Shown: piece after piece, positions 1 to 36,135 of the stretch
Layout of the letters: each line of letters opens with the position of its first letter
How positions within the stretch are numbered: the stretch's first letter is position 1
IMG/VR virus record: IMGVR_UViG_2695420521_000002
Span: 35,400 to 99,399 of that record
Strand: one strand, 5' to 3'
Source: a virus
Taxonomy: Duplodnaviria > Heunggongvirae > Uroviricota > Caudoviricetes
DNA: 64,000 nucleotides
The notes under the pieces: generated by a model
Databases searched by the model: none
What the model was told of the DNA's origin: nothing
What the model saw: the letters and a program-made list of their open reading frames with translations, nothing else
Made by a program: the position numbers and the translations under genes

Positions 1-1366
1 GGTGAGTGCAGGTTGAGTTTTTTCTTCATGTCTTCCTTTGACATCACCTTCCATTGACCTGCGGAATTTATCCCTACCGGTATCTTTGATGCTTCCTCTA
101 TAGTCGCAGCCCCCTTATCAAGCCGCATACGCCCTGATTTTACAGCTTCTGCCGCCTGAATATTCGCGAAAGCGCGCATATCGAAATAAAGGCTTTTATC
201 TTCGCGGCTGTGCATCTTTTTACCCCAGCGGATACGCTGGACGGTAATACCATAGCGTTCGTACATCAGATCAGCCGTCGATTTCCCCAAGCCATCGCCA
301 TCAATAGCTATGGTTATGTTCGGGAACCGTTCTGGGTTACATTCTGCGAAAATCTTGGCTGCTAACTGCGTTTCTGTAACGTCTGTGTATTCCAGCATAC
401 GATAGCTGATTACACGGCGTTTATTTCGCTGGCCGGACACCATCATGATATTGATAACTGACTTATCTCGTCCTGTGCCACCAGCAACGTCAACACATGC
501 AACCCAGCCCCATCCTTTGGCAATCTTGACCTTCCGCCGCGTCGCCCGCTCAACCTCATCACGACCAAGAAGAAAGCCATCTTGAGATTTGGGAAATTCA
601 CCACGTACTTTGATCATGTACATGGGGTTATCACGACCGCCATACTCCGCAAGTTTTGCTCGTATAAATTTTGCATCTACAAGCGGAGATTCTTCACTAT
701 TCAGTATTATCGCAGTAAACAATCCATCAGGATTTCCCGGGCGAATAGCTAGTCTGTGGTGTGAATCGTAGAAATAGCCTGAAGGTCGCGTAGGCTGGGA
801 AAGAAGCAGAATACGGTTATCCTTACCGGTCAGCGCACCTGTTATCACACTGAATGCTTTATCACTCACACCCGACGCTTCGTCGATGATATACAAGAGA
901 TGATCGGCGTGTTCACCAGCCAACGCCTCCTCATTTCCGGGGCGACAGGACTTTATCAATATTGTCCAAACACCCTTGCCAGTCACCTCAAAAAAAGACG
1001 TTTCTGTAAGAATGAAATACTTCGACAACCACGGGAATCTGCTAACAGCAGTAGCCCAATTGCTCTTTATGTATTTGAAAATACCATCAAGGACTTGCTG
1101 TCTTTTGTTAGCGACCAGAATGACGCGAGCGCCGGGGAAAAACATGATGAAGAGTATTGCAATGATACTCGTCATATCCGACTTACCAGTACCATGGCCG
1201 GAGGTCACACTTGTCCAACTGCCGTCCTGCTGCGTGGACTCAATGATCTCATCCTGCTGCCAGGTTGGTGTCTTCCCAAACAACACATCAGCGGCCGCAA
1301 TCCAGTCATAACGATATAGCGCCACCAGCTCGCGCCAACGTGGGTCCGTTACGCAACTTCTGGCCA
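1..1366 (-). CDS. pacB: terminase large subunit PacB; C-terminal end cut by window edge
   Basis: Minus-strand ORF starting at ATG 1364-1366 directly after pacA stop; my translation shows P-loop SGHGTGKS and LYIIDEASG; open to position 1. Confidence 0.8.
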
Positions 1367-2560
1367 TTAATCATCATCCCCGTACAGTTTGCGGGTAACT
1401 TCTTCGTCTTCCTCCTCGTCTTCGTCCAGATCCTGTTCAAGCCATGCTTCGTTTGATATGCCTTCCGCATCGACATCACCATAACCACCTGTATCGACGA
1501 TATCGGCAATTTCTTCTCTACGATGCTCAATCCACAATGCGGCATCAGCGCGGCGGCTGGCGGCCCGTTCTCGCGCGATTTTATCCAGATCTTCAAGTGA
1601 TGGAGCGCCAGATGCTGTTTGGTTTTCCTCATCATCGGTATTGGTCTTAGGAGCACGCAGATCGGCTTTGATTTGCTCCAGCATCAGGGGCGGCACTTTT
1701 CCGCCATGCGCCTCGATGAATTCAGCAGCTTCCAGCACTGACCAGTTATTTTCACGCTTTCGTTCGTATGCCAGCTTAACAATGCCAGCTTGCCCCATAG
1801 ATAAAGCGTGCTTTTCCGCCTCCCGGCTTTCTTTTCGATAGTTATTCCGGATGCTATAAATGGTGTTGATCAGGCTGCTTATCTGCGCGGAACAGCTGTT
1901 TAGCATGCTCGCGATACGGTATTCAGGCGGAGTACCTTCATCATCGTCTTTTTGCTGATCGCGCATTTCCTGCACCAGGCGAATACACGTATCCCGGGCG
2001 TTCTCCAGCATAAGGAGATGAGAAAGAGACTTTTCAAGAAGAGTGGTTTCCAGAACATCGGCCCCGGACCGACGCAACATAGCGCGCGCGGCCTTCCGCG
2101 CTTCAACGTTATCTATCAGGTAATCGCCAGCTTCGAATTCAAAGCGTTCACCATCATCATCCAGGGTGTCGCGTTCCAGGCGATCACGTAAGGTCCGGTG
2201 GGCGCGGGTGATCACGTCATGATCATCTGAACGATCATTTATGCGCTTATTTTGGCGCTTCGCATTCTCGACTGCGGCACTGATAACGGCATTAACTCTT
2301 TGTTTTTCCGCTATTTCAGCCGCAATGTGATCACCTGCATGTTGATCATTAGAGTGATCAATGATCATGCTTTTTAGTGGCTTCCTGACTGGCTTATTTG
2401 GCTTGCGGCTGTCCGCTGTCCTGGTGTCTTCTTTAAAGGCACGGAGATAACGACGTGCAGTATTAGGGTTAAGATTAAACTCGGCGGCATACTGTGCGAT
2501 GGTGTAACCACCATCTCGCGCCAGGCGAGCAAAATTCTTCTTGTGATCGTCCCAGGTCAC
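1367..2560 (-). CDS. pacA: terminase small subunit / pac-recognition protein PacA
   Basis: 397-aa ORF just upstream of pacB; contains clustered TGATCA hexamers typical of the P1 pac site; position after lpa as in P1. Confidence 0.8.
2181..2367. other. pac: pac packaging site: two clusters of four (T/C)GATCA hexamers about 90 bp apart
   Basis: Hexamers at 2181, 2209, 2220, 2232 and 2328, 2343, 2355, 2362, all containing GATC, inside the 5' part of pacA. Confidence 0.7.
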
Positions 2561-2641
2561 TTATGCTTCCTTTCGTAAAAACTCTTTTTGACGCGAGGGT
2601 AACGAAAGTCACATGTCAAAAGGCCCGGAACGGGCAAGCAA

Positions 2642-3094
2642 TCAGATACGTGCGGATGTGGCATTACCGTAATGACGGTGCTGACGGGCCACCTTATTGA
2701 AAAGTTGACGCGCCATTACCCAAGGCTGGTGCTCCCGGCGTTCCTTTTCGTCCTGCGTCATATAGAGTTCGTTCTGGAGTTTTTCATCAAACCGGCGCGG
2801 CGCGCGGCTGCGGCGAAAGAATTCAGGATTCAGAGAGTGGATCTGAAATCTGCGTGGGCGTGTACTGTCATCAATCAAAACAGACGAATACTTAGACACA
2901 GCGATAGCCTTTAAGCGCAGATAAACATCGCGCTTATCGACATCCAGATGCGGGTATTCCTTTTCAAGAATTGCTGCGAGTTCTTTCGCTGATAGAAGAG
3001 ATTTAGTGCGGATCATGTAATCCGCAATCTCGTACGATGTTATTCGTGAGTGATTTATTTCCATGAAGTGGCGTCCCTGCCAGTTAAGTAACAT
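2642..3094 (-). CDS. lpa: late promoter activator Lpa (gp10-like)
   Basis: 150-aa ORF between pdcB and pacA; C1 operator-like 17-mer just upstream; synteny with P1 phd-doc-pdcA-pdcB-lpa-pacA-pacB. Confidence 0.65.
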   Translation of the reverse strand: MLLNWQGRHFMEINHSRITSYEIADYMIRTKSLLSAKELAAILEKEYPHLDVDKRDVYLRLKAIAVSKYSSVLIDDSTRPRRFQIHSLNPEFFRRSRAPRRFDEKLQNELYMTQDEKERREHQPWVMARQLFNKVARQHRHYGNATSARI

Positions 3095-3164
3095 CCTGTC
3101 ACCTACTGATTAGCCCATGTCAACTAATCAACGTGGAATATAATACCCTCGATTAAAGAAATAG

Positions 3165-3181
3165 CAATACATTAGAGCAAT
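3165..3181 (-). promoter_or_regulatory. C1 repressor operator-like site upstream of lpa (Op86-like)
   Basis: Plus strand CAATACATTAGAGCAAT; about 14/17 match to reverse complement of P1 C1 operator consensus ATTGCTCTAATAAATTT. Confidence 0.55.
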
Positions 3182-3182
3182 T

Positions 3183-4226
3183 TTATCTAACGTTCGACGA
3201 GTGACTTGTGATAGCGCCGACTCCAAGCGCGTAATCAAAGAACAATCGTTGATGCATCGCCAGCCTACCGTGCGTCTTCTCCCAATTATCGCGGTCACGC
3301 TCAATATCACGCTGGCATGACTGGCACAGAGGAATAGCATAAATGTCATGCGCGCATAATCGACTATGACGAACGATATAAGGCGTAATGTGAGCGCCAG
3401 CTCCCGCAGCTCCACACCCACAGCATGGACGGGAAGCAACAAAGTCCATGTACTCAGGTAATTTTAGCGATTGCAGTTTTGGTATTTTGAAATGCGCCAT
3501 ACCTGGGTCGGAGTCAACATCCACTGGACATACTTTTGCGCGCATCGGCGCGGCACGTTCTTCCATCATCTGAACATATGCTGTAGCGCGATCGTCATAC
3601 GGGCGAATATCCGCCTCTTTCAGAGGTCCGCTATCCTGCGTTGCTGCCTTAATCTTATTTATTGATATACGGCAGACTTCTTCCGGCATCAAGTGCATCA
3701 TGTCGCGCATGAAAGCCCACCAGCACAGTTCCTGAATACTTAAATCATGGCCATCTGAAAGCCCCATTTCCTGACGGGCGACATCCAGTATCCAGTTAAC
3801 GCGATTATTATGCAGCGTTTCTTTCAGCTCATTAAAACCACGCATCCTGTAATGGTTATCGTGATGCCAGCACAACAACACCGCGCTATTGTCTCGTTCT
3901 GCGTGGACAATATGGTTGTCACACCAGCTACGATCTGCGGCCTGGCATTGCCCCTCTTTCCTGCGCAACCACGCCACCAGCGCGTCAATTCCACCAATAC
4001 GGCGAAACAGTTCATCGCTGTTAAAAAACGGCTGCAACGCCTCATTTGTTGCCATAGTTTGCTCGGAAACAACGAGGCCGTCGTCCATGTGCTCGATTAA
4101 CTCACGCGGCACCGGCTCCATAATAAATTTACGGCCAGCCTCCACCAGCTTTCTGACTTCCTGATCCACTTTGAATGTGGCGACGCCAAGCTCTTTTTGT
4201 ACAAAGGGAGTAATTACGGCTTTCAC
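3183..4226 (-). CDS. pdcB: PdcB-like protein (post-doc), unknown function, Cys-rich C-terminal region
   Basis: 347-aa ORF in operon position after doc-pdcA; symbol by synteny only. Confidence 0.5.
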
Positions 4227-4253
4227 ATCACACCTTTCATCACTGATTGGGCT

Positions 4254-4454
4254 TTATCTGCTGCCCGGCATTCTCTGTTTAAGCACAACCATTTCCTGAC
4301 GGCATAACACAGCAATAGCAGTCCTGGCTCCAATTTGCTTACCAACCAGGTATTGCTTTACCTCGCGGCGACTCACGCCATCAAGAAGCATCTTTAACGC
4401 TTCACGGGACAATTTGTTGTATTTACGTGCCATTAATCTACTCCGCGGAACCAT
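4254..4454 (-). CDS. pdcA: PdcA-like small protein
   Basis: 66-aa ORF overlapping the 3' end of doc by 17 nt; symbol by synteny. Confidence 0.45.
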
Positions 4455-4818
4455 ACAATCTACGTAACGTGTCGGCGACAGAAGATACAGATATCTCGCC
4501 AGTTGCAGCGCCTACGGTAAGGTCTGCCAGTTCAGGTGAATCAAATACCTGCACCCCGTTACGGCGTAGAAATAGCAGCGCACTGTTTAGCGCGGTACGC
4601 TTATTGGCATCATTGAATATATGCCCTCTCGCTGTAGCCACCAGGTAGGTGGCGGAGACTTCGAAAAGGTCGGTGATCTCTTCGTAGGCAACTCTGGCCT
4701 GAACTCTCCCGATAATGGCCTCTGCCCTACCCGGATCAGACATTCCCGGCAGGCCGCCGTAGCGGCTTATATTCGCATCATGAAGCGCAATAAGTTCTTC
4801 CGGTGATATATGTCTCAT
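4438..4818 (-). CDS. doc: Doc toxin (Fic/Doc family)
   Basis: 126-aa protein [22 protein letters not shown]...; start ATG shares one nucleotide with phd stop (TAATG). Confidence 0.95.
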
Positions 4819-5045
4819 TATCGGTTAACCAGTTCCTTGTTGGTGGAGTCCAGGGTGTCAAACAGGGATGCAAATTCAGCATCCAGCGCCGCTTTTTTGT
4901 AGGCTTCGAAAGTAGCCTTGCTGACAATTACTGCTGGCTCACGGCCTCTGCGGGTGATTTCAACCTCTTCCCCGGCTTCAACATTGTTGAGCACTTCAGA
5001 AAGGTTGCCACGCGCGGTACGGAAGTTAATGGATTGCATAAACAC
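4818..5045 (-). CDS. phd: Phd antitoxin (prevent-host-death); true start probably ATG at 5039
   Basis: Translation [49 protein letters not shown]... matches P1 Phd as I recall it. Confidence 0.95.
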
Positions 5046-5080
5046 CTCGTGTACTCGTTATGTGTACACAATTATAAACT
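5046..5080 (-). promoter_or_regulatory. phd-doc promoter/operator: -10 TATAAT overlapping GTGTAC-type palindromes
   Basis: Minus strand TATAAT (plus 5071-5076) followed by TGTGTACACA (5061-5070) and CGTGTAC (5048-5054). Confidence 0.55.
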
Positions 5081-5439
5081 TCACAGGCATAAAGCACCAG
5101 CACTTTGCAGCTTAAATAACCGGACAATAATCAAATTCCCCACTTCGGGCATCATTGATGACATGAGTGATCACACCAAAAACAGCATTACTGCCCGTAC
5201 ATCCTAGTGTTGACGTGGATACATCCACTATCTTTGGCTATCCGCTGCCCACATGAAGTAGCTCACTGATGGATATCGAAGTAACCTTGCTGAAAATTAC
5301 CGCTAGTTATTCATACTCCGCCATTCCTCCTATGCTTCCATACACCGAGTTCATGTGTTTTTAATCGACAGTAACCATCTGAAACATAGATAAGAGAATC
5401 TAAAACGAAGGTCTACTCTATGCTAAATAGAAAGGGAGG

Positions 5440-5484
5440 CTCAATAGAATAATGGCGTTGAGGAAGTCAACGCCATTATTATTT
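5440..5484. terminator. hairpin terminator downstream of invasin-like gene (bidirectional-looking)
   Basis: 11-bp perfect stem AATGGCGTTGA/TCAACGCCATT (5451-5477) with A/T-rich flanks on both sides. Confidence 0.55.
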
Positions 5485-5510
5485 AAGATTGAGTCATTCT
5501 AAGCAAAAAA

Positions 5511-8500
5511 TTATTCCGCTTCCTTATCATTCGCCTCTACAGCATTAATGGTTATTGTTACCGGTTCCATTTCGTATCCTCCATAGTTTAGAGAGTTGAA
5601 TGTTAATGTATATTTTCCTGGCTTAGTGGTGCTAAATTTGCGTGTAATTTTACCGTTTACAAAATGGTCGGATTTAGAAGGCAGGAATTCATAATCCTCT
5701 TCTTTCACATTGTCAGGTGCCTGAATCTCAACCCACATAGTGCCCCCGACAGGATTATTTTCCGCCATAAGAGTAATCTCCAACGTTGCGGTTGTTGTCC
5801 CATCCGCCACCAGAGATGTAACATCAGACGATGCGGCAAGCACTGCGTTTTTGTAATCCACAACGAATCTGGACTCAGCTGTTTTAGTCGATGTTTGACC
5901 ATTAGTCTGCTTAACTGTAGCCGTCACTGTATACGTCGCAGCCGTTGTTGTTGTAGCAGTGAAAACAGCCAGCCCTTGCTCATCTGTTGTAGCCCCCCCG
6001 TCAGGTGACAGAGTTAATTCTCCCGGACTGGTACTAGCACTGGCACTCAACGTAACCTCACTCCCTTTCAGGAGGTTGTTATTAGCATCAGTTACCGTAA
6101 TCTTGTATGTTTGTTTATCTTTACCATTTGCCAGAGCATTGTTATTAATCACCTCTATGCTAGAAATGGTTGCTGTAGCTTTGTCAGCCACAAACGTAAT
6201 CGTCTTGGTATCTGAAGGCTGCTCATTTTCTGTTGATGCCGTGACCTCATACGATCCAGCAATCACGGAAACTACTTGTAGTTCCGCTTTACCCTCATCG
6301 TTGGTCCTCACCCAAATGTGTTTCCCAGTAATAGGTCTGACCCCCTTTGGTAGATTAAACGTCACCAACTCTCCAGGAACTGCATTGCTATTTTTATCCT
6401 TAACAATAGCCGTCAGCGTAAAGGCATCACTGCCATTTGCTGCTCTTTGAGAGCTATCGTCAACCTGAAGGCTTACCTGCCCAGAACTGGCATCCGCACT
6501 GAACGTCACCGTAACCGTCTTCTGAGCACCATTCACCGAAGCAGTAATATTGTGTTCCCCAGCAACCGTTGACATCAACTCAATATCAGCTTTACCCGCC
6601 GCATTAGTTGTTACCGTATTCCCTGTCTTGCTGGTCACACCCTGCGGTAAAGTCAGCGTGACATTTTGCCCCTGTAACGGGTTGCCATAGGTATCCACGA
6701 CGGTCAGAGTTATCTGGTTAGCAGACTGTCCATTAGCCAGTTGGTTGTTAACCTTCACTGTCATATCACTGATTACTGCCTGAGATGTGTCACCTGCAAC
6801 ATTCAGCACCAGAGGCTGGGCAACGGCATTTTGGCCGTTCACTCGCGGCATCACGATTAATTCACCCGCCGTAGTACCCAGAGAAATCTGCGCAGTCCAT
6901 GTTCCATCGCCATTATCTGTCCAATCTGATACCGACGACCCCGTAGAGGCTGCGCCCGATAATGACGGCGCTTCCGGGGTGATACCTGTTACTGGGTTGT
7001 CATTGGCATCTTTTGCTGACCAGATTGCCGTAAGCGTACCGCCAACCACAGGTTTATCCGAGGTCAGAGTGATAGTTGAGTGTTTGGCATCAATCGGCCC
7101 GGCAACAAACTTCAGCGTTTGTTGCAACAAGCCCAACTGATACTGCTCACTAAAGACACGCACAACAACATCTCCGGCACTGGTCGAAGAAACCGTGGCG
7201 CTGTAAATCCCAGGTTTTATCTCCGAAATAGTGCCAACGGTAACTCCGTTGTTGTCCTGCGGAACAAAGCGCAGACGGCTGGCTTCTCCCGTCACAGCGT
7301 TGCCATCGGTATCTACCGCTGTAAGCGTCAGCGTGTAGGATTGCTGACCATCAGCAGTCACATCATCTGAAAGCTCACTCACACTCAGAGTGGACTTTGT
7401 CACATCCATCATTGTGGCACGCAAATCGGCAGTAACGGTTTTGCTCATACCATCAATGCTCACAGTAATGGTTGCTTCACCTGATTGCGTACCAGTAGTG
7501 AAGACTGACTGATACACCCCTGCTTCAGTTTCGGTGAACTCACCTAATGTTGGCTGTGTCTGTGATTTAGCAGACCTAAGAGCCCGCGTTACAATGTTTC
7601 CGGCAGGTTTAAACGTCAGCTCAGTCTTGATCTGATCTTTCATACCCGTGATTGGTTGTCCCTCGGCATCGCGGAGAGACAGCGCCAGCGTTTTTTGCGA
7701 GCTACCATTAGCAAGCATCTGGATACTGTCCTGTCCGTCAAGCGTTAGCGCAGAACGATCGGCACTCATACTCGCACCGGTAATGACCACCTGTGTCTTT
7801 ACACGCTTCGAGGCATTGCCTTTGTTATCATATGCTACCGCAGAGATCGCGTAATAATTGTCTTTGCCTGCCTGATAAGCCGGGAGCGTCACTTGCCACT
7901 GGTTGCCCTGCCCGGTAATTTTACCGCCCGCAGCCAGCAAAGACGGCGCCTCCCACTGCACATTTTTTAGACCGTGGGTTGCTTTACTGACCACAAGCCC
8001 CAGGGATACCGTCTGCCCGCTCTTACCTTCAATACGCTCAGGCAGAGCAATACGGATCACTTCAGATTTGCGGTATTCAAGAACGATGTTGTTATTACGC
8101 TCAACCAGGTCATAGCGGCTGCCTGTCAGCACACGGCGCTCGCGAATGCTATCCGTATCGAGTTGTTTTTCCAGAGGTTCGCCAATCCGGTAGTTAATTT
8201 CCAGGCCCAAACGGGTGTCATTCTGACCGCTCTTGCCCTGCTTATGCTCTGCGCTCAGGGTCAGAAGAGGTACAGGCGTGTAGTTCACCCCAGCTGAAAT
8301 AGCATGTGGGTTTTTCTGGCGTTTATCTTTACCAAACAGTCCTACCTCATCGCCGTAATACTGTTCATACATCAGGCTTGCGCCAAGCTGTGGCCAGGCC
8401 GGTAAATAGCCCTCAGCACGGATATCCCAGCCATTCGCCGGACGTTCCTGATAATCCTCAACATCCGGCGATTTTTTCCAGCCAGAAGCCCGGATATAAC

Positions 8501-9146: not shown

Positions 9147-9823
9147 AATTTCTTGATGAACGCGTTAACGAACATTTGCAACTGCGAGTAAAAACATTTG
9201 CTTTCAGAAATTTCCGAGAGAAAACTCCTAGGGGGCGCGGATGCTATCACAAACCAAAAAGTGTAACAATACATGAACCAGAGAATTAATGCTTGTTATT
9301 TATCTGTCACCAATATGTTGTGATTGGTTAGCGTCAATGTTATTGGTTATGTTTACCAAATAATAAGAGGGAGTATTTCAATACATGAGAGGATGATTTT
9401 TTTAACATGGGAAGTGAAATCTTTTCCATTATTACATGGTTTATAAATTATAAAAAATGCCCCAATCCATGAATAACGCCTTTAGAGAAATACCCCCCCA
9501 TTTCTATATAATAACTTTGATGTAATGGACGATATATTAGAGCATGTGGCACGCAATCAGATAATAACAATCTTTTCCTTGGATAAATTAGAGATTAATA
9601 GTGCGTCATATTCACGACATAATGGCACACAAGGATTTCTAGATTATTGTTTATTACAATCGATACTATTAAGGTTTTTTTGTTGATAGAGAACAGCCAG
9701 AAATAGATCGCGGCCATAATGATTTTGAATGCCGTGTTCATATTTTCAGCTCCTGTGATTGATTGGAAACATGCCGCGCCTTGCGGCATGTTTTTATTTT
9801 CACTTTCTCTGTTTTAAAAATCA
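9147..9823 (-). other. about 680-bp AT-rich ORF-poor leader upstream of invasin-like gene
   Basis: Visibly AT-rich; no credible ORF; contains a hairpin and borders a C1 operator-like site. Confidence 0.5.
9770..9798 (+). terminator. intrinsic terminator-like hairpin with T-run on plus strand
   Basis: CATGCCGC-gcctt-GCGGCATG followed by TTTTTATTTT. Confidence 0.5.
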
Positions 9824-9840
9824 AGATTTATTAGAGCAAT
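9824..9840 (-). promoter_or_regulatory. C1 operator-like site (16/17) overlapping stop codon of the 168-aa gene, facing the invasin leader
   Basis: Plus strand AGATTTATTAGAGCAAT. Confidence 0.6.
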
Positions 9841-10346
9841 TATTGTTGATAAAGAAGCGCATTTTCATACTCCCTGACCATTAACGTAAGCACGCCGTGC
9901 CTCCTGAAAACACGCGCCACTTCAATCTTATCTTCCAGCGCGAACGCGATTTTACTTAGACCAATTTTCTTAAGGAGATCAATCTTTGCTGGGCCGTCAT
10001 TTCTGTCATCGGTGGCAGGACGCATAGATAGCAAAGGCTCAGCCCCGTTTGTTACGTACTTCCGCAGCCAGGCTCGTGTTTTATCCCTTGCGATCTCACA
10101 GCGCCCGGTTACAAACCAGACCGTGTAAACGTTAAATAACTGGCGCACCATATCAATAACTGGAGTGATGGGAGCATCAGTGTCACAGGCAAGGTTAAAC
10201 TCGTTCCAGTGCTCTGTTAATGCACCTTTGCCAGGTGGTGGAAGCAAATGCAGCCTGTCTTCCGTTGCCTCTGATATCGTCCCATCAATATCGACTATGA
10301 CGATATACGGACGTTCCTGGTGTGCGTGTTTATTGAAAATACTCAA
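9840..10346 (-). CDS. HAD-superfamily phosphatase-like protein
   Basis: 168 aa; N-terminal IVIVDIDGTI (DxDxT) and downstream FVTGR motifs. Confidence 0.5.
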   Translation of the reverse strand: MSIFNKHAHQERPYIVIVDIDGTISEATEDRLHLLPPPGKGALTEHWNEFNLACDTDAPITPVIDMVRQLFNVYTVWFVTGRCEIARDKTRAWLRKYVTNGAEPLLSMRPATDDRNDGPAKIDLLKKIGLSKIAFALEDKIEVARVFRRHGVLTLMVREYENALLYQQ

Positions 10347-10419
10347 ATGCCCTCCTCATTGGACGAAAAAAATGCTGGTGGGACGCACTCCACCAGCATT
10401 AAAAGTGACACTGTAACTA

Positions 10420-34938: not shown

Positions 34939-36135
34939 ATGAGTGATTCCAGCCAGCTTCACAAGGTTGCTCAAAGAGCAAACAGAATGCTCAATGTTCT
35001 GACTGAACAAGTACAGTTGCAAAAGGATGAGCTACACGCGAACGAGTTTTACCAGGTCTATGCGAAAGCGGCACTGGCAAAATTGCCTCTACTGACTCGA
35101 GCGAACGTTGACTATGCCGTAAGTGAAATGGAAGAAAAGGGTTATGTTTTCGATAAACGCCCTGCTGGCTCTTCAATGAAATATGCGATGTCAATTCAGA
35201 ACATCATTGACATATATGAACATCGCGGAGTGCCAAAATACCGGGATCGCTACAGCGAAGCGTATGTGATTTTCATCTCCAATCTTAAAGGCGGTGTGTC
35301 AAAAACTGTATCGACGGTTTCTCTGGCGCATGCAATGCGTGCTCACCCTCATCTTCTGATGGAAGATTTAAGGATTCTGGTTATTGACCTTGATCCGCAA
35401 TCTTCAGCAACGATGTTTTTAAGCCATAAACACTCTATTGGTATCGTAAACGCAACATCTGCACAGGCTATGTTGCAGAATGTAAGCCGTGAAGAGCTGT
35501 TAGAGGAGTTTATTGTTCCTTCTGTTGTACCTGGGGTTGACGTTATGCCTGCGTCGATTGACGATGCCTTTATTGCATCCGATTGGAGAGAGCTGTGCAA
35601 TGAGCATCTACCGGGTCAGAACATCCATGCAGTCCTGAAAGAAAATGTGATTGATAAGCTGAAGAGCGATTATGACTTTATCCTCGTTGATAGTGGTCCT
35701 CACCTTGACGCCTTCCTGAAAAATGCTTTGGCCTCGGCCAATATACTGTTTACACCTCTGCCGCCTGCAACGGTTGATTTCCACTCATCGCTTAAATACG
35801 TTGCCCGCCTTCCTGAGTTGGTGAAACTCATTTCGGATGAAGGCTGCGAGTGCCAGCTTGCGACTAACATTGGTTTTATGTCCAAGTTGAGTAACAAGGC
35901 AGACCATAAATATTGCCATAGCCTGGCTAAAGAAGTGTTCGGTGGGGATATGCTTGATGTCGTCCTCCCTCGCCTTGACGGTTTTGAACGCTGCGGCGAG
36001 TCTTTTGACACTGTTATTTCAGCTAACCCGGCAACGTATGTTGGTAGTGCTGATGCATTGAAGAACGCGCGAATTGCCGCGGAAGATTTTGCAAAAGCAG
36101 TGTTTGACCGTATTGAATTTATCAGATCTAACTGA
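34939..36135 (+). CDS. parA: partition ATPase ParA
   Basis: 398 aa; deviant Walker A NLKGGVSKT. Confidence 0.9.
   Translation: MSDSSQLHKVAQRANRMLNVLTEQVQLQKDELHANEFYQVYAKAALAKLPLLTRANVDYAVSEMEEKGYVFDKRPAGSSMKYAMSIQNIIDIYEHRGVPKYRDRYSEAYVIFISNLKGGVSKTVSTVSLAHAMRAHPHLLMEDLRILVIDLDPQSSATMFLSHKHSIGIVNATSAQAMLQNVSREELLEEFIVPSVVPGVDVMPASIDDAFIASDWRELCNEHLPGQNIHAVLKENVIDKLKSDYDFILVDSGPHLDAFLKNALASANILFTPLPPATVDFHSSLKYVARLPELVKLISDEGCECQLATNIGFMSKLSNKADHKYCHSLAKEVFGGDMLDVVLPRLDGFERCGESFDTVISANPATYVGSADALKNARIAAEDFAKAVFDRIEFIRSN

Follow-up and report, generated by a model that had tools for sequence, protein, structure and literature searches.

The window, meaning the whole 64,000-nt stretch of viral DNA that was analyzed (IMG/VR record IMGVR_UViG_2695420521_000002, positions 35,400 to 99,399), carries part of a P1-like phage-plasmid. 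At 9824–9840 it holds a 17-bp site at the end of pap, the final backbone gene ahead of the site. Further along the minus strand lie two overlapping predicted promoters, a GC-rich hairpin, a small open reading frame (ORF) and, beyond a junction between backbone and cargo, an AT-rich leader followed by a large adhesin gene (Table 1). A preliminary description of this DNA had named the gene next to the site HAD-like, which a Pfam match to HAD_PNKP bears out, and had placed the site over the stop codon of that gene. The TAA is at 9842–9840, so that the site and the stop codon share the last base. The invasin toward which the site was said to point is indeed encoded on the minus strand as a protein of 1211 aa, in which IAT_beta covers residues 78–352, Big_1 is found in four stretches and Invasin_D3 in seven. 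With its N-terminal IAT beta-barrel and tandem Ig-like passenger domains, the protein belongs to the inverse autotransporters, and its gene shares 82–85% nucleotide identity with genes annotated as fdeC or intimin-like adhesin FdeC.

Table 1. Features at and around the 9824–9840 site, in window coordinates
Feature	Position	Strand	Description and evidence
pap, HAD/PNKP-type phosphatase	9840–10346	-	Final backbone gene ahead of the operator; Pfam HAD_PNKP 8.3e-12; PHROG 'polynucleotide kinase'
C1 operator orthologous to P1 OpmgT (former Op88) and P7 Op(hea)	9824–9840	-	Consensus match; identity to P1 in sequence and position
P2pmgT counterpart, predicted sigma-70 promoter	9811–9839	-	-35 TTGCTC at 9839–9834, within the operator; 17-nt spacer; -10 TAAAAC at 9816–9811
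P1pmgT counterpart, predicted promoter	9796–9824	-	-35 TTGATT at 9824–9819, abutting the operator; 17-nt spacer; -10 GAAAAT at 9801–9796
GC-rich hairpin	9764–9796		Intrinsic terminator with U-run on the plus strand; without U-run on the minus strand
Small ORF, 48 aa	9595–9741	-	Good Shine-Dalgarno AGGAG at 9754–9750; codons 1–19 are P1 backbone (MNTAFKIIMAAIYFWLFSI)
Junction of backbone (≥9684) and cargo (≤9683)	9683–9684		Megablast matches end there; alignment
Adhesin leader, 537 nt, AT-rich (~31% GC)	9147–9683	-	Homology to upstream regions of non-P1 adhesin genes
Promoter-like element of the cassette	9241–9269	-	-35 TTGTTA; 17-nt spacer; extended -10 TGaTAGCAT; ~90 nt 5' of the ATG
FdeC-like inverse autotransporter adhesin, 1211 aa	5511–9146	-	Pfam IAT_beta 6e-109, Big_1, Invasin_D3; similarity to fdeC-annotated genes
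14-bp hairpin ~30 nt past the adhesin stop	5451–5480	-	-21.5 kcal/mol, z = -6.3

Read on the minus strand from 9840 to 9824, the site is ATTGCTCTAATAAATCT, and a recount gave the same 16 of 17 matches to the P1 C1-operator consensus ATTGCTCTAATAAATTT that had been reported for it. With up to three mismatches allowed, the consensus occurs 11 times in the window, compared with 0.34 times expected from 100 dinucleotide-preserving shuffles, none of which yielded 11. Because Op83, an annotated P1 operator, has 4 mismatches to this consensus, a site with one mismatch is among the better operators. We carried out the comparison with operator positions in P1 that the preliminary description had suggested. 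In P1, pap spans 83787–84293 and the operator 84293–84309, with the same stop-codon overlap as in the window, and the P1 record labels the latter 'monovalent C1-controlled operator OpmgT; corresponds to former Op88'. The orthologous site in P7 is labeled Op(hea). Window positions 9684–12000 align in reverse orientation to P1 82134–84449 with 98.7% identity, and P7, RCS47, SJ46 and others are similarly close. In the alignment, no base differs between window and P1 in the operator, either predicted promoter, the hairpin or codons 1–19 of the small ORF. Judged by its sequence and its position, 9824–9840 is thus the orthologue of P1 Op88/OpmgT, which belongs to the monovalent sites that the C1 immunity repressor binds at scattered positions. 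It already has a name and an annotation and stands in its usual place, so the operator is ordinary in itself. Op88 is attributed as a C1 operator to Citron, Velleman and Schuster (J Biol Chem 1989, pmid 2536753), as cited in PMC1934351; the original Op88 fragments are GenBank X98146 and M25414. Three other operator matches of the window were also mapped to P1, those at 11917 (Op86b), 11966 (Op86a) and 15590 (Op82). Collinearity with P1 fails beyond ~16 kb, where offsets drift by kilobases, and the operators expected in P1 regions picked by assumed collinearity past that point were absent from those regions.

For a wider comparison, we retrieved 57 P1-like contigs from IMG/VR by an exact 39-mer of the hairpin region (9807–9769), which together with P1, P7, the Escherichia albertii plasmid p2RM9976 and the window gives a set of 61 sequences. 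The operator is kept in all 57 contigs. Across the full set it varies little: 35 of the 61 sequences have exactly ATTGCTCTAATAAATCT, and 20 carry the P7 variant ending in ...ATAT.

Both pmgT promoters were transferred to the window from the P1 annotation through the alignment, and the P1 record, too, lists them as 'predicted'. They are conserved base for base. Both are weak, and neither is called by a generic promoter scan. The -10 hexamer of P2pmgT is itself weak, and P1pmgT matches at 8 of its 12 hexamer positions. Shuffled sequence yields promoter-like matches just as often as this region does, so generic promoter and terminator scans do not choose between the explanations considered below. 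The hairpin downstream of the promoters is predicted to fold with -24.6 kcal/mol on the plus strand and -20.3 kcal/mol on the minus strand, and the terminator scan calls the plus-strand version only. It would act as a strong terminator for transcription running opposite to that from the Op88 promoters, and the predicted P1pmgT start site would fall in its 5' arm. Among the 57 retrieved sequences, only 2 of the 33 hairpin columns vary, a near-invariance that is no independent evidence because 31 of the 33 columns lie within the 39-mer used for retrieval.

The small ORF behind the hairpin is cut by the cargo junction at codon 19/20, and past codon 19 it reads on into cargo-derived sequence. In P1 and its relatives, it encodes an intact 28-aa hydrophobic peptide (MNTAFKIIMAAIYFWLFSITFGGIVAHG) that is followed directly by pmgT. 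The small ORF lies at ~3968–4058 (minus strand) in the P1 locus L001 and at 1472–1606 (minus strand) in locus L064. Of 57 P1-like sequences, 50 encode exactly the same peptide, and at several of the codons that do vary the changes are silent. The 28-aa ORF has a strong Shine-Dalgarno sequence and is annotated in neither the P1 nor the P7 record; in a P1-like plasmid of E. coli, PGAP has predicted a version of 44 aa (WP_032185952.1). Searches of Pfam and PHROGs with PmgT, PmgU, PmgV and the small ORF returned no informative family. The Op88 operon may actually begin with this small ORF. On the opposite strand, positions 9614–9797 matched the Rfam family GcvB (RF00022) with 28.1 bits (E = 2e-4 to 5e-4) against a gathering threshold of 42. 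This candidate small RNA spans the junction of backbone and cargo and scores only 19.2 bits in P1, and we judged it a chance match. It rests on the terminator hairpin plus a CUCCUGU stretch antisense to the ribosome-binding site of the small ORF. An antisense RNA that ends at the 9764–9796 terminator and covers this ribosome-binding site may exist.

The extent of the cargo was defined from both of its ends. In Megablast searches, the matching sequence of P1 and of 884 E. coli genomes always ends at window position 9684, and homology to P1 resumes at 5204, inside humD. Between these points, 4.48 kb stand in place of ~3.4 kb of backbone that reached from pmgT into humD. The replaced sequence includes the end of the small ORF, pmgT, pmgU and pmgV, upfM, upfN and upfO, hot, lxr and most of humD; a humD remnant of ~90 bp of its 3' end remains at 5116–5204, upstream of phd-doc. 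Up to ~9681, the leader shares 69–74% identity with the sequence upstream of related adhesin genes in two non-P1 E. coli replicons, and in one of these a MarR-family gene stands immediately upstream, where the leader homology stops. This homology to non-phage contexts identifies the leader as the adhesin's native upstream region, which by the alignments arrived with the cassette. Within the leader, the promoter-like element at 9241–9269 shares the top score in a lenient minus-strand scan. Its -35, TG and -10 are invariant in all four aligned leaders, with two spacer positions differing in one or two of them, a conservation drawn from four sequences only. We take this element to be a candidate for the cassette's own promoter. 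At the other end, the hairpin past the adhesin stop codon is missed by a simple terminator scan because its U-run is weak; it probably forms the 3' end of the cassette transcript.

The adhesin arrangement is very rare. We found it again in p2RM9976 (IncY, 85.8 kb), which is about 97–98% identical to the window. The cassette is absent from close relatives: P1, P7 and the 57 IMG/VR loci carry other sequences at this slot, so that none of the 57 has the adhesin arrangement. A junction-spanning match was found in 0 of 5,426 complete E. coli genomes, 884 of which contain the backbone part. The exact 24-mer across the junction, GGCTGTTCTCTATCAACAAAAAAA, had no occurrence in GTDB representative genomes or JGI metagenomes, and no exact copy of the adhesin protein is on record. 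In published text, we found neither transcript mapping at Op88 nor any mention of a P1-like plasmid with this adhesin. The window begins in pacB and stops short of c1; p2RM9976 encodes a 'phage repressor protein C1' adjoining pacB, and by this sibling plasmid we assume that c1 is present in the element analyzed here.

The slot itself is highly variable among P1-like elements. Downstream of the operator, the retrieved sequences form a single class over the first 150 nt, which is partly a selection effect because the retrieval 39-mer lies within that stretch; they form four classes at 160–460 nt and 12 by 1–1.5 kb. About a fifth of the loci (12 of 57) carry in the slot an EcoR124-type type I restriction-modification system, hsdM-hsdS-hsdR, convergent to the operator (at 227–6238 of locus L012, for example, and in 11 other IMG/VR loci). 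This class agrees with notes in the P1 record on sequences 'downstream of hsdR', and in these hsdMSR-bearing elements the 9764–9796 hairpin stands at the end of the convergent hsdR. As described by Venturini et al. 2019 (PMC6906374), the region between pap and lxr, RD-5, is one of five variation hot-spots in P1-like plasmids. The replacement in the window falls in this interval and ends on the right shortly beyond pap; the interval is likewise mosaic in the 57 contigs. The window differs in that its replacement runs beyond lxr into humD and in that adhesin cargo was otherwise found in the slot only in p2RM9976. A module of ~150 bp, consisting of Op88, its promoters, the hairpin and the small ORF, thus forms a fixed boundary beside very different exchanged cargo.

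We consider it probable (roughly 70%) that the site is an intact backbone operator beside an autonomous adhesin cargo, with any C1 coupling of the adhesin limited to read-through. In a lysogen, C1 bound to the operator would occlude the -35 regions of the two overlapping minus-strand promoters. In P1, the Op88 promoters would drive the small hydrophobic ORF and pmgT-pmgU-pmgV. Recombination within the small ORF would then have exchanged the pmgT-to-humD stretch for a self-contained cassette, leaving the operator-promoter module in place as backbone, where it would now gate only what is left of the small ORF, a chimera of 48 aa, together with any read-through. C1 occupancy of the site, the activity of its promoters and the degree of read-through are inferred. 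On derepression, some transcription may pass into the leader; such read-through is physically possible, as the scan finds no canonical minus-strand terminator from 9824 to 9146. The adhesin would most likely be expressed from the promoter in its own leader, which is probably subject to silencing by nucleoid proteins as for fdeC. That H-NS and temperature regulate fdeC is credited to Easton et al. 2014, as cited in PMC6714894.

The preliminary description had raised a possible tie between the adhesin and the repressor circuit. In its full form, this would mean that on induction or fresh infection transcripts from the Op88 promoters raise adhesin levels meaningfully and so link adhesion to the choice between lysis and lysogeny. 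The operator-promoter module and the adhesin gene are co-oriented, the 9764–9796 hairpin has no U-run on the minus strand and no minus-strand terminator follows as far as 9146, and two independent sequences, those of the window and of p2RM9976, both retain the arrangement. All of this is consistent with coupling. However, the cassette still has all of its native upstream sequence, the conserved promoter-like element included, and the read-through RNA would be untranslated for ~450 nt, including a C-rich, G-poor segment at 9440–9281 (C 20–24%, G 8–11%). Untranslated RNA that is rich in C and poor in G is the type of substrate on which Rho terminates, which favors Rho-dependent termination of the read-through. 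Because the slot takes cargo in either orientation, the co-orientation of adhesin and operator is a 1-in-2 event and no evidence of design. The rarity of the adhesin in the slot also counts against coupling, and it is hard to see what would be gained from an adhesin made solely in cells bound for lysis. We regard meaningful coupling to C1 as unlikely on this evidence. The proposal that an FdeC-like adhesin was captured into a C1-repressed early-transcription slot, so that read-through would place it in the program of prophage derepression, seems to us less probable again. If read-through of this kind were true, virulence-factor expression would be coupled to induction of a phage-plasmid prophage, making induced or freshly infected cells adhesive, for example. 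A phage-plasmid would then provide a counterpart to the induction-coupled expression of virulence factors, a parallel being Shiga toxin, which is tied to lambdoid induction.

The other suggestion made for the site was that it is the relic of a displaced gene. Of the two suggestions it comes closest and is largely correct. It holds for the genes downstream, since the native operon (pmgT-pmgU-pmgV in P1, the 'hea' genes in P7) has been replaced by the adhesin cassette, and fails only for the regulatory sequence, since operator, promoters and hairpin are identical to P1 and show no decay. As an explanation, an inert relic would persist because the swap is recent and because the site overlaps the pap stop codon; it would affect no gene of consequence and would decay in time. 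Loss of the native operon and truncation of the first downstream ORF at codon 19 agree with such a history, and with about 97–98% identity between the window and its only sibling there has been little time for decay. In contrast, the operator and promoters are intact base for base, and the module is also kept where the downstream cargo is convergent, which suggests upkeep whatever follows it. By the general workings of repressor titration, a C1 site would also still add to repressor occupancy on the plasmid. A wholly inert relic is accordingly a poor account of the site, with a lower standing than coupling in either form. A chance match unrelated to C1 would be conceivable in locally AT-rich DNA, but it is refuted by the synteny with P1 Op88, with the same sequence and position and 98.7% identical flanks, and by the 11 matches against 0.34 expected, and can be dismissed.

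In comparison with the known sites, the window has the same 17 bp as P1 OpmgT (Op88), placed alike at the pap stop codon, and the overlapping predicted promoters, the downstream hairpin and the beginning of the small ORF also agree. P7 Op(hea) differs from the window operator at position 16. The downstream genes set the three apart: pmgT-pmgU-pmgV in P1, upf86.8 onward in P7 and, in the window, a truncated small ORF and then the FdeC-like cassette. The operator adds nothing new, being a named site of a textbook phage. What is mildly new is a rare intimin-like adhesin as cargo in a known hot-spot, the pap-lxr interval of P1-like phage-plasmids. The cassette resembles phage morons as a single accessory gene between backbone genes, with its own upstream regulatory region and 3' hairpin, and absent from relatives. 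It is unlike them in that it is a replacement at the cost of ~3.4 kb of backbone rather than a pure insertion, and its promoter and terminator are putative.

The adhesin is like FdeC/EaeH of E. coli in combining an IAT_beta barrel with tandem Big_1 and Invasin_D3 domains. It differs from them in being located on a P1-like phage-plasmid, without upstream neighbors of the MarR and PerC families. By gene coordinates, its closest plasmid homologues are ~1414 aa long, compared with 1211 aa in the window. The closest homologues outside P1-like elements are found on two ~110-kb 'plasmids' (NZ_CP117002 and CP056250; rep_cluster_488), where they adjoin housekeeping-type genes (metG, apbC and rnhA). In one of the two, the adhesin gene lies downstream of MarR- and PerC-family regulator genes, both of which are absent from the window cassette. 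On the other side of the operator, a strong terminator-like hairpin with a T-run is found on the coding strand between pmgS and pap (10371–10400, minus strand), and simple co-transcription of pap with pmgR-pmgS from the Op86-controlled promoter may therefore not apply.
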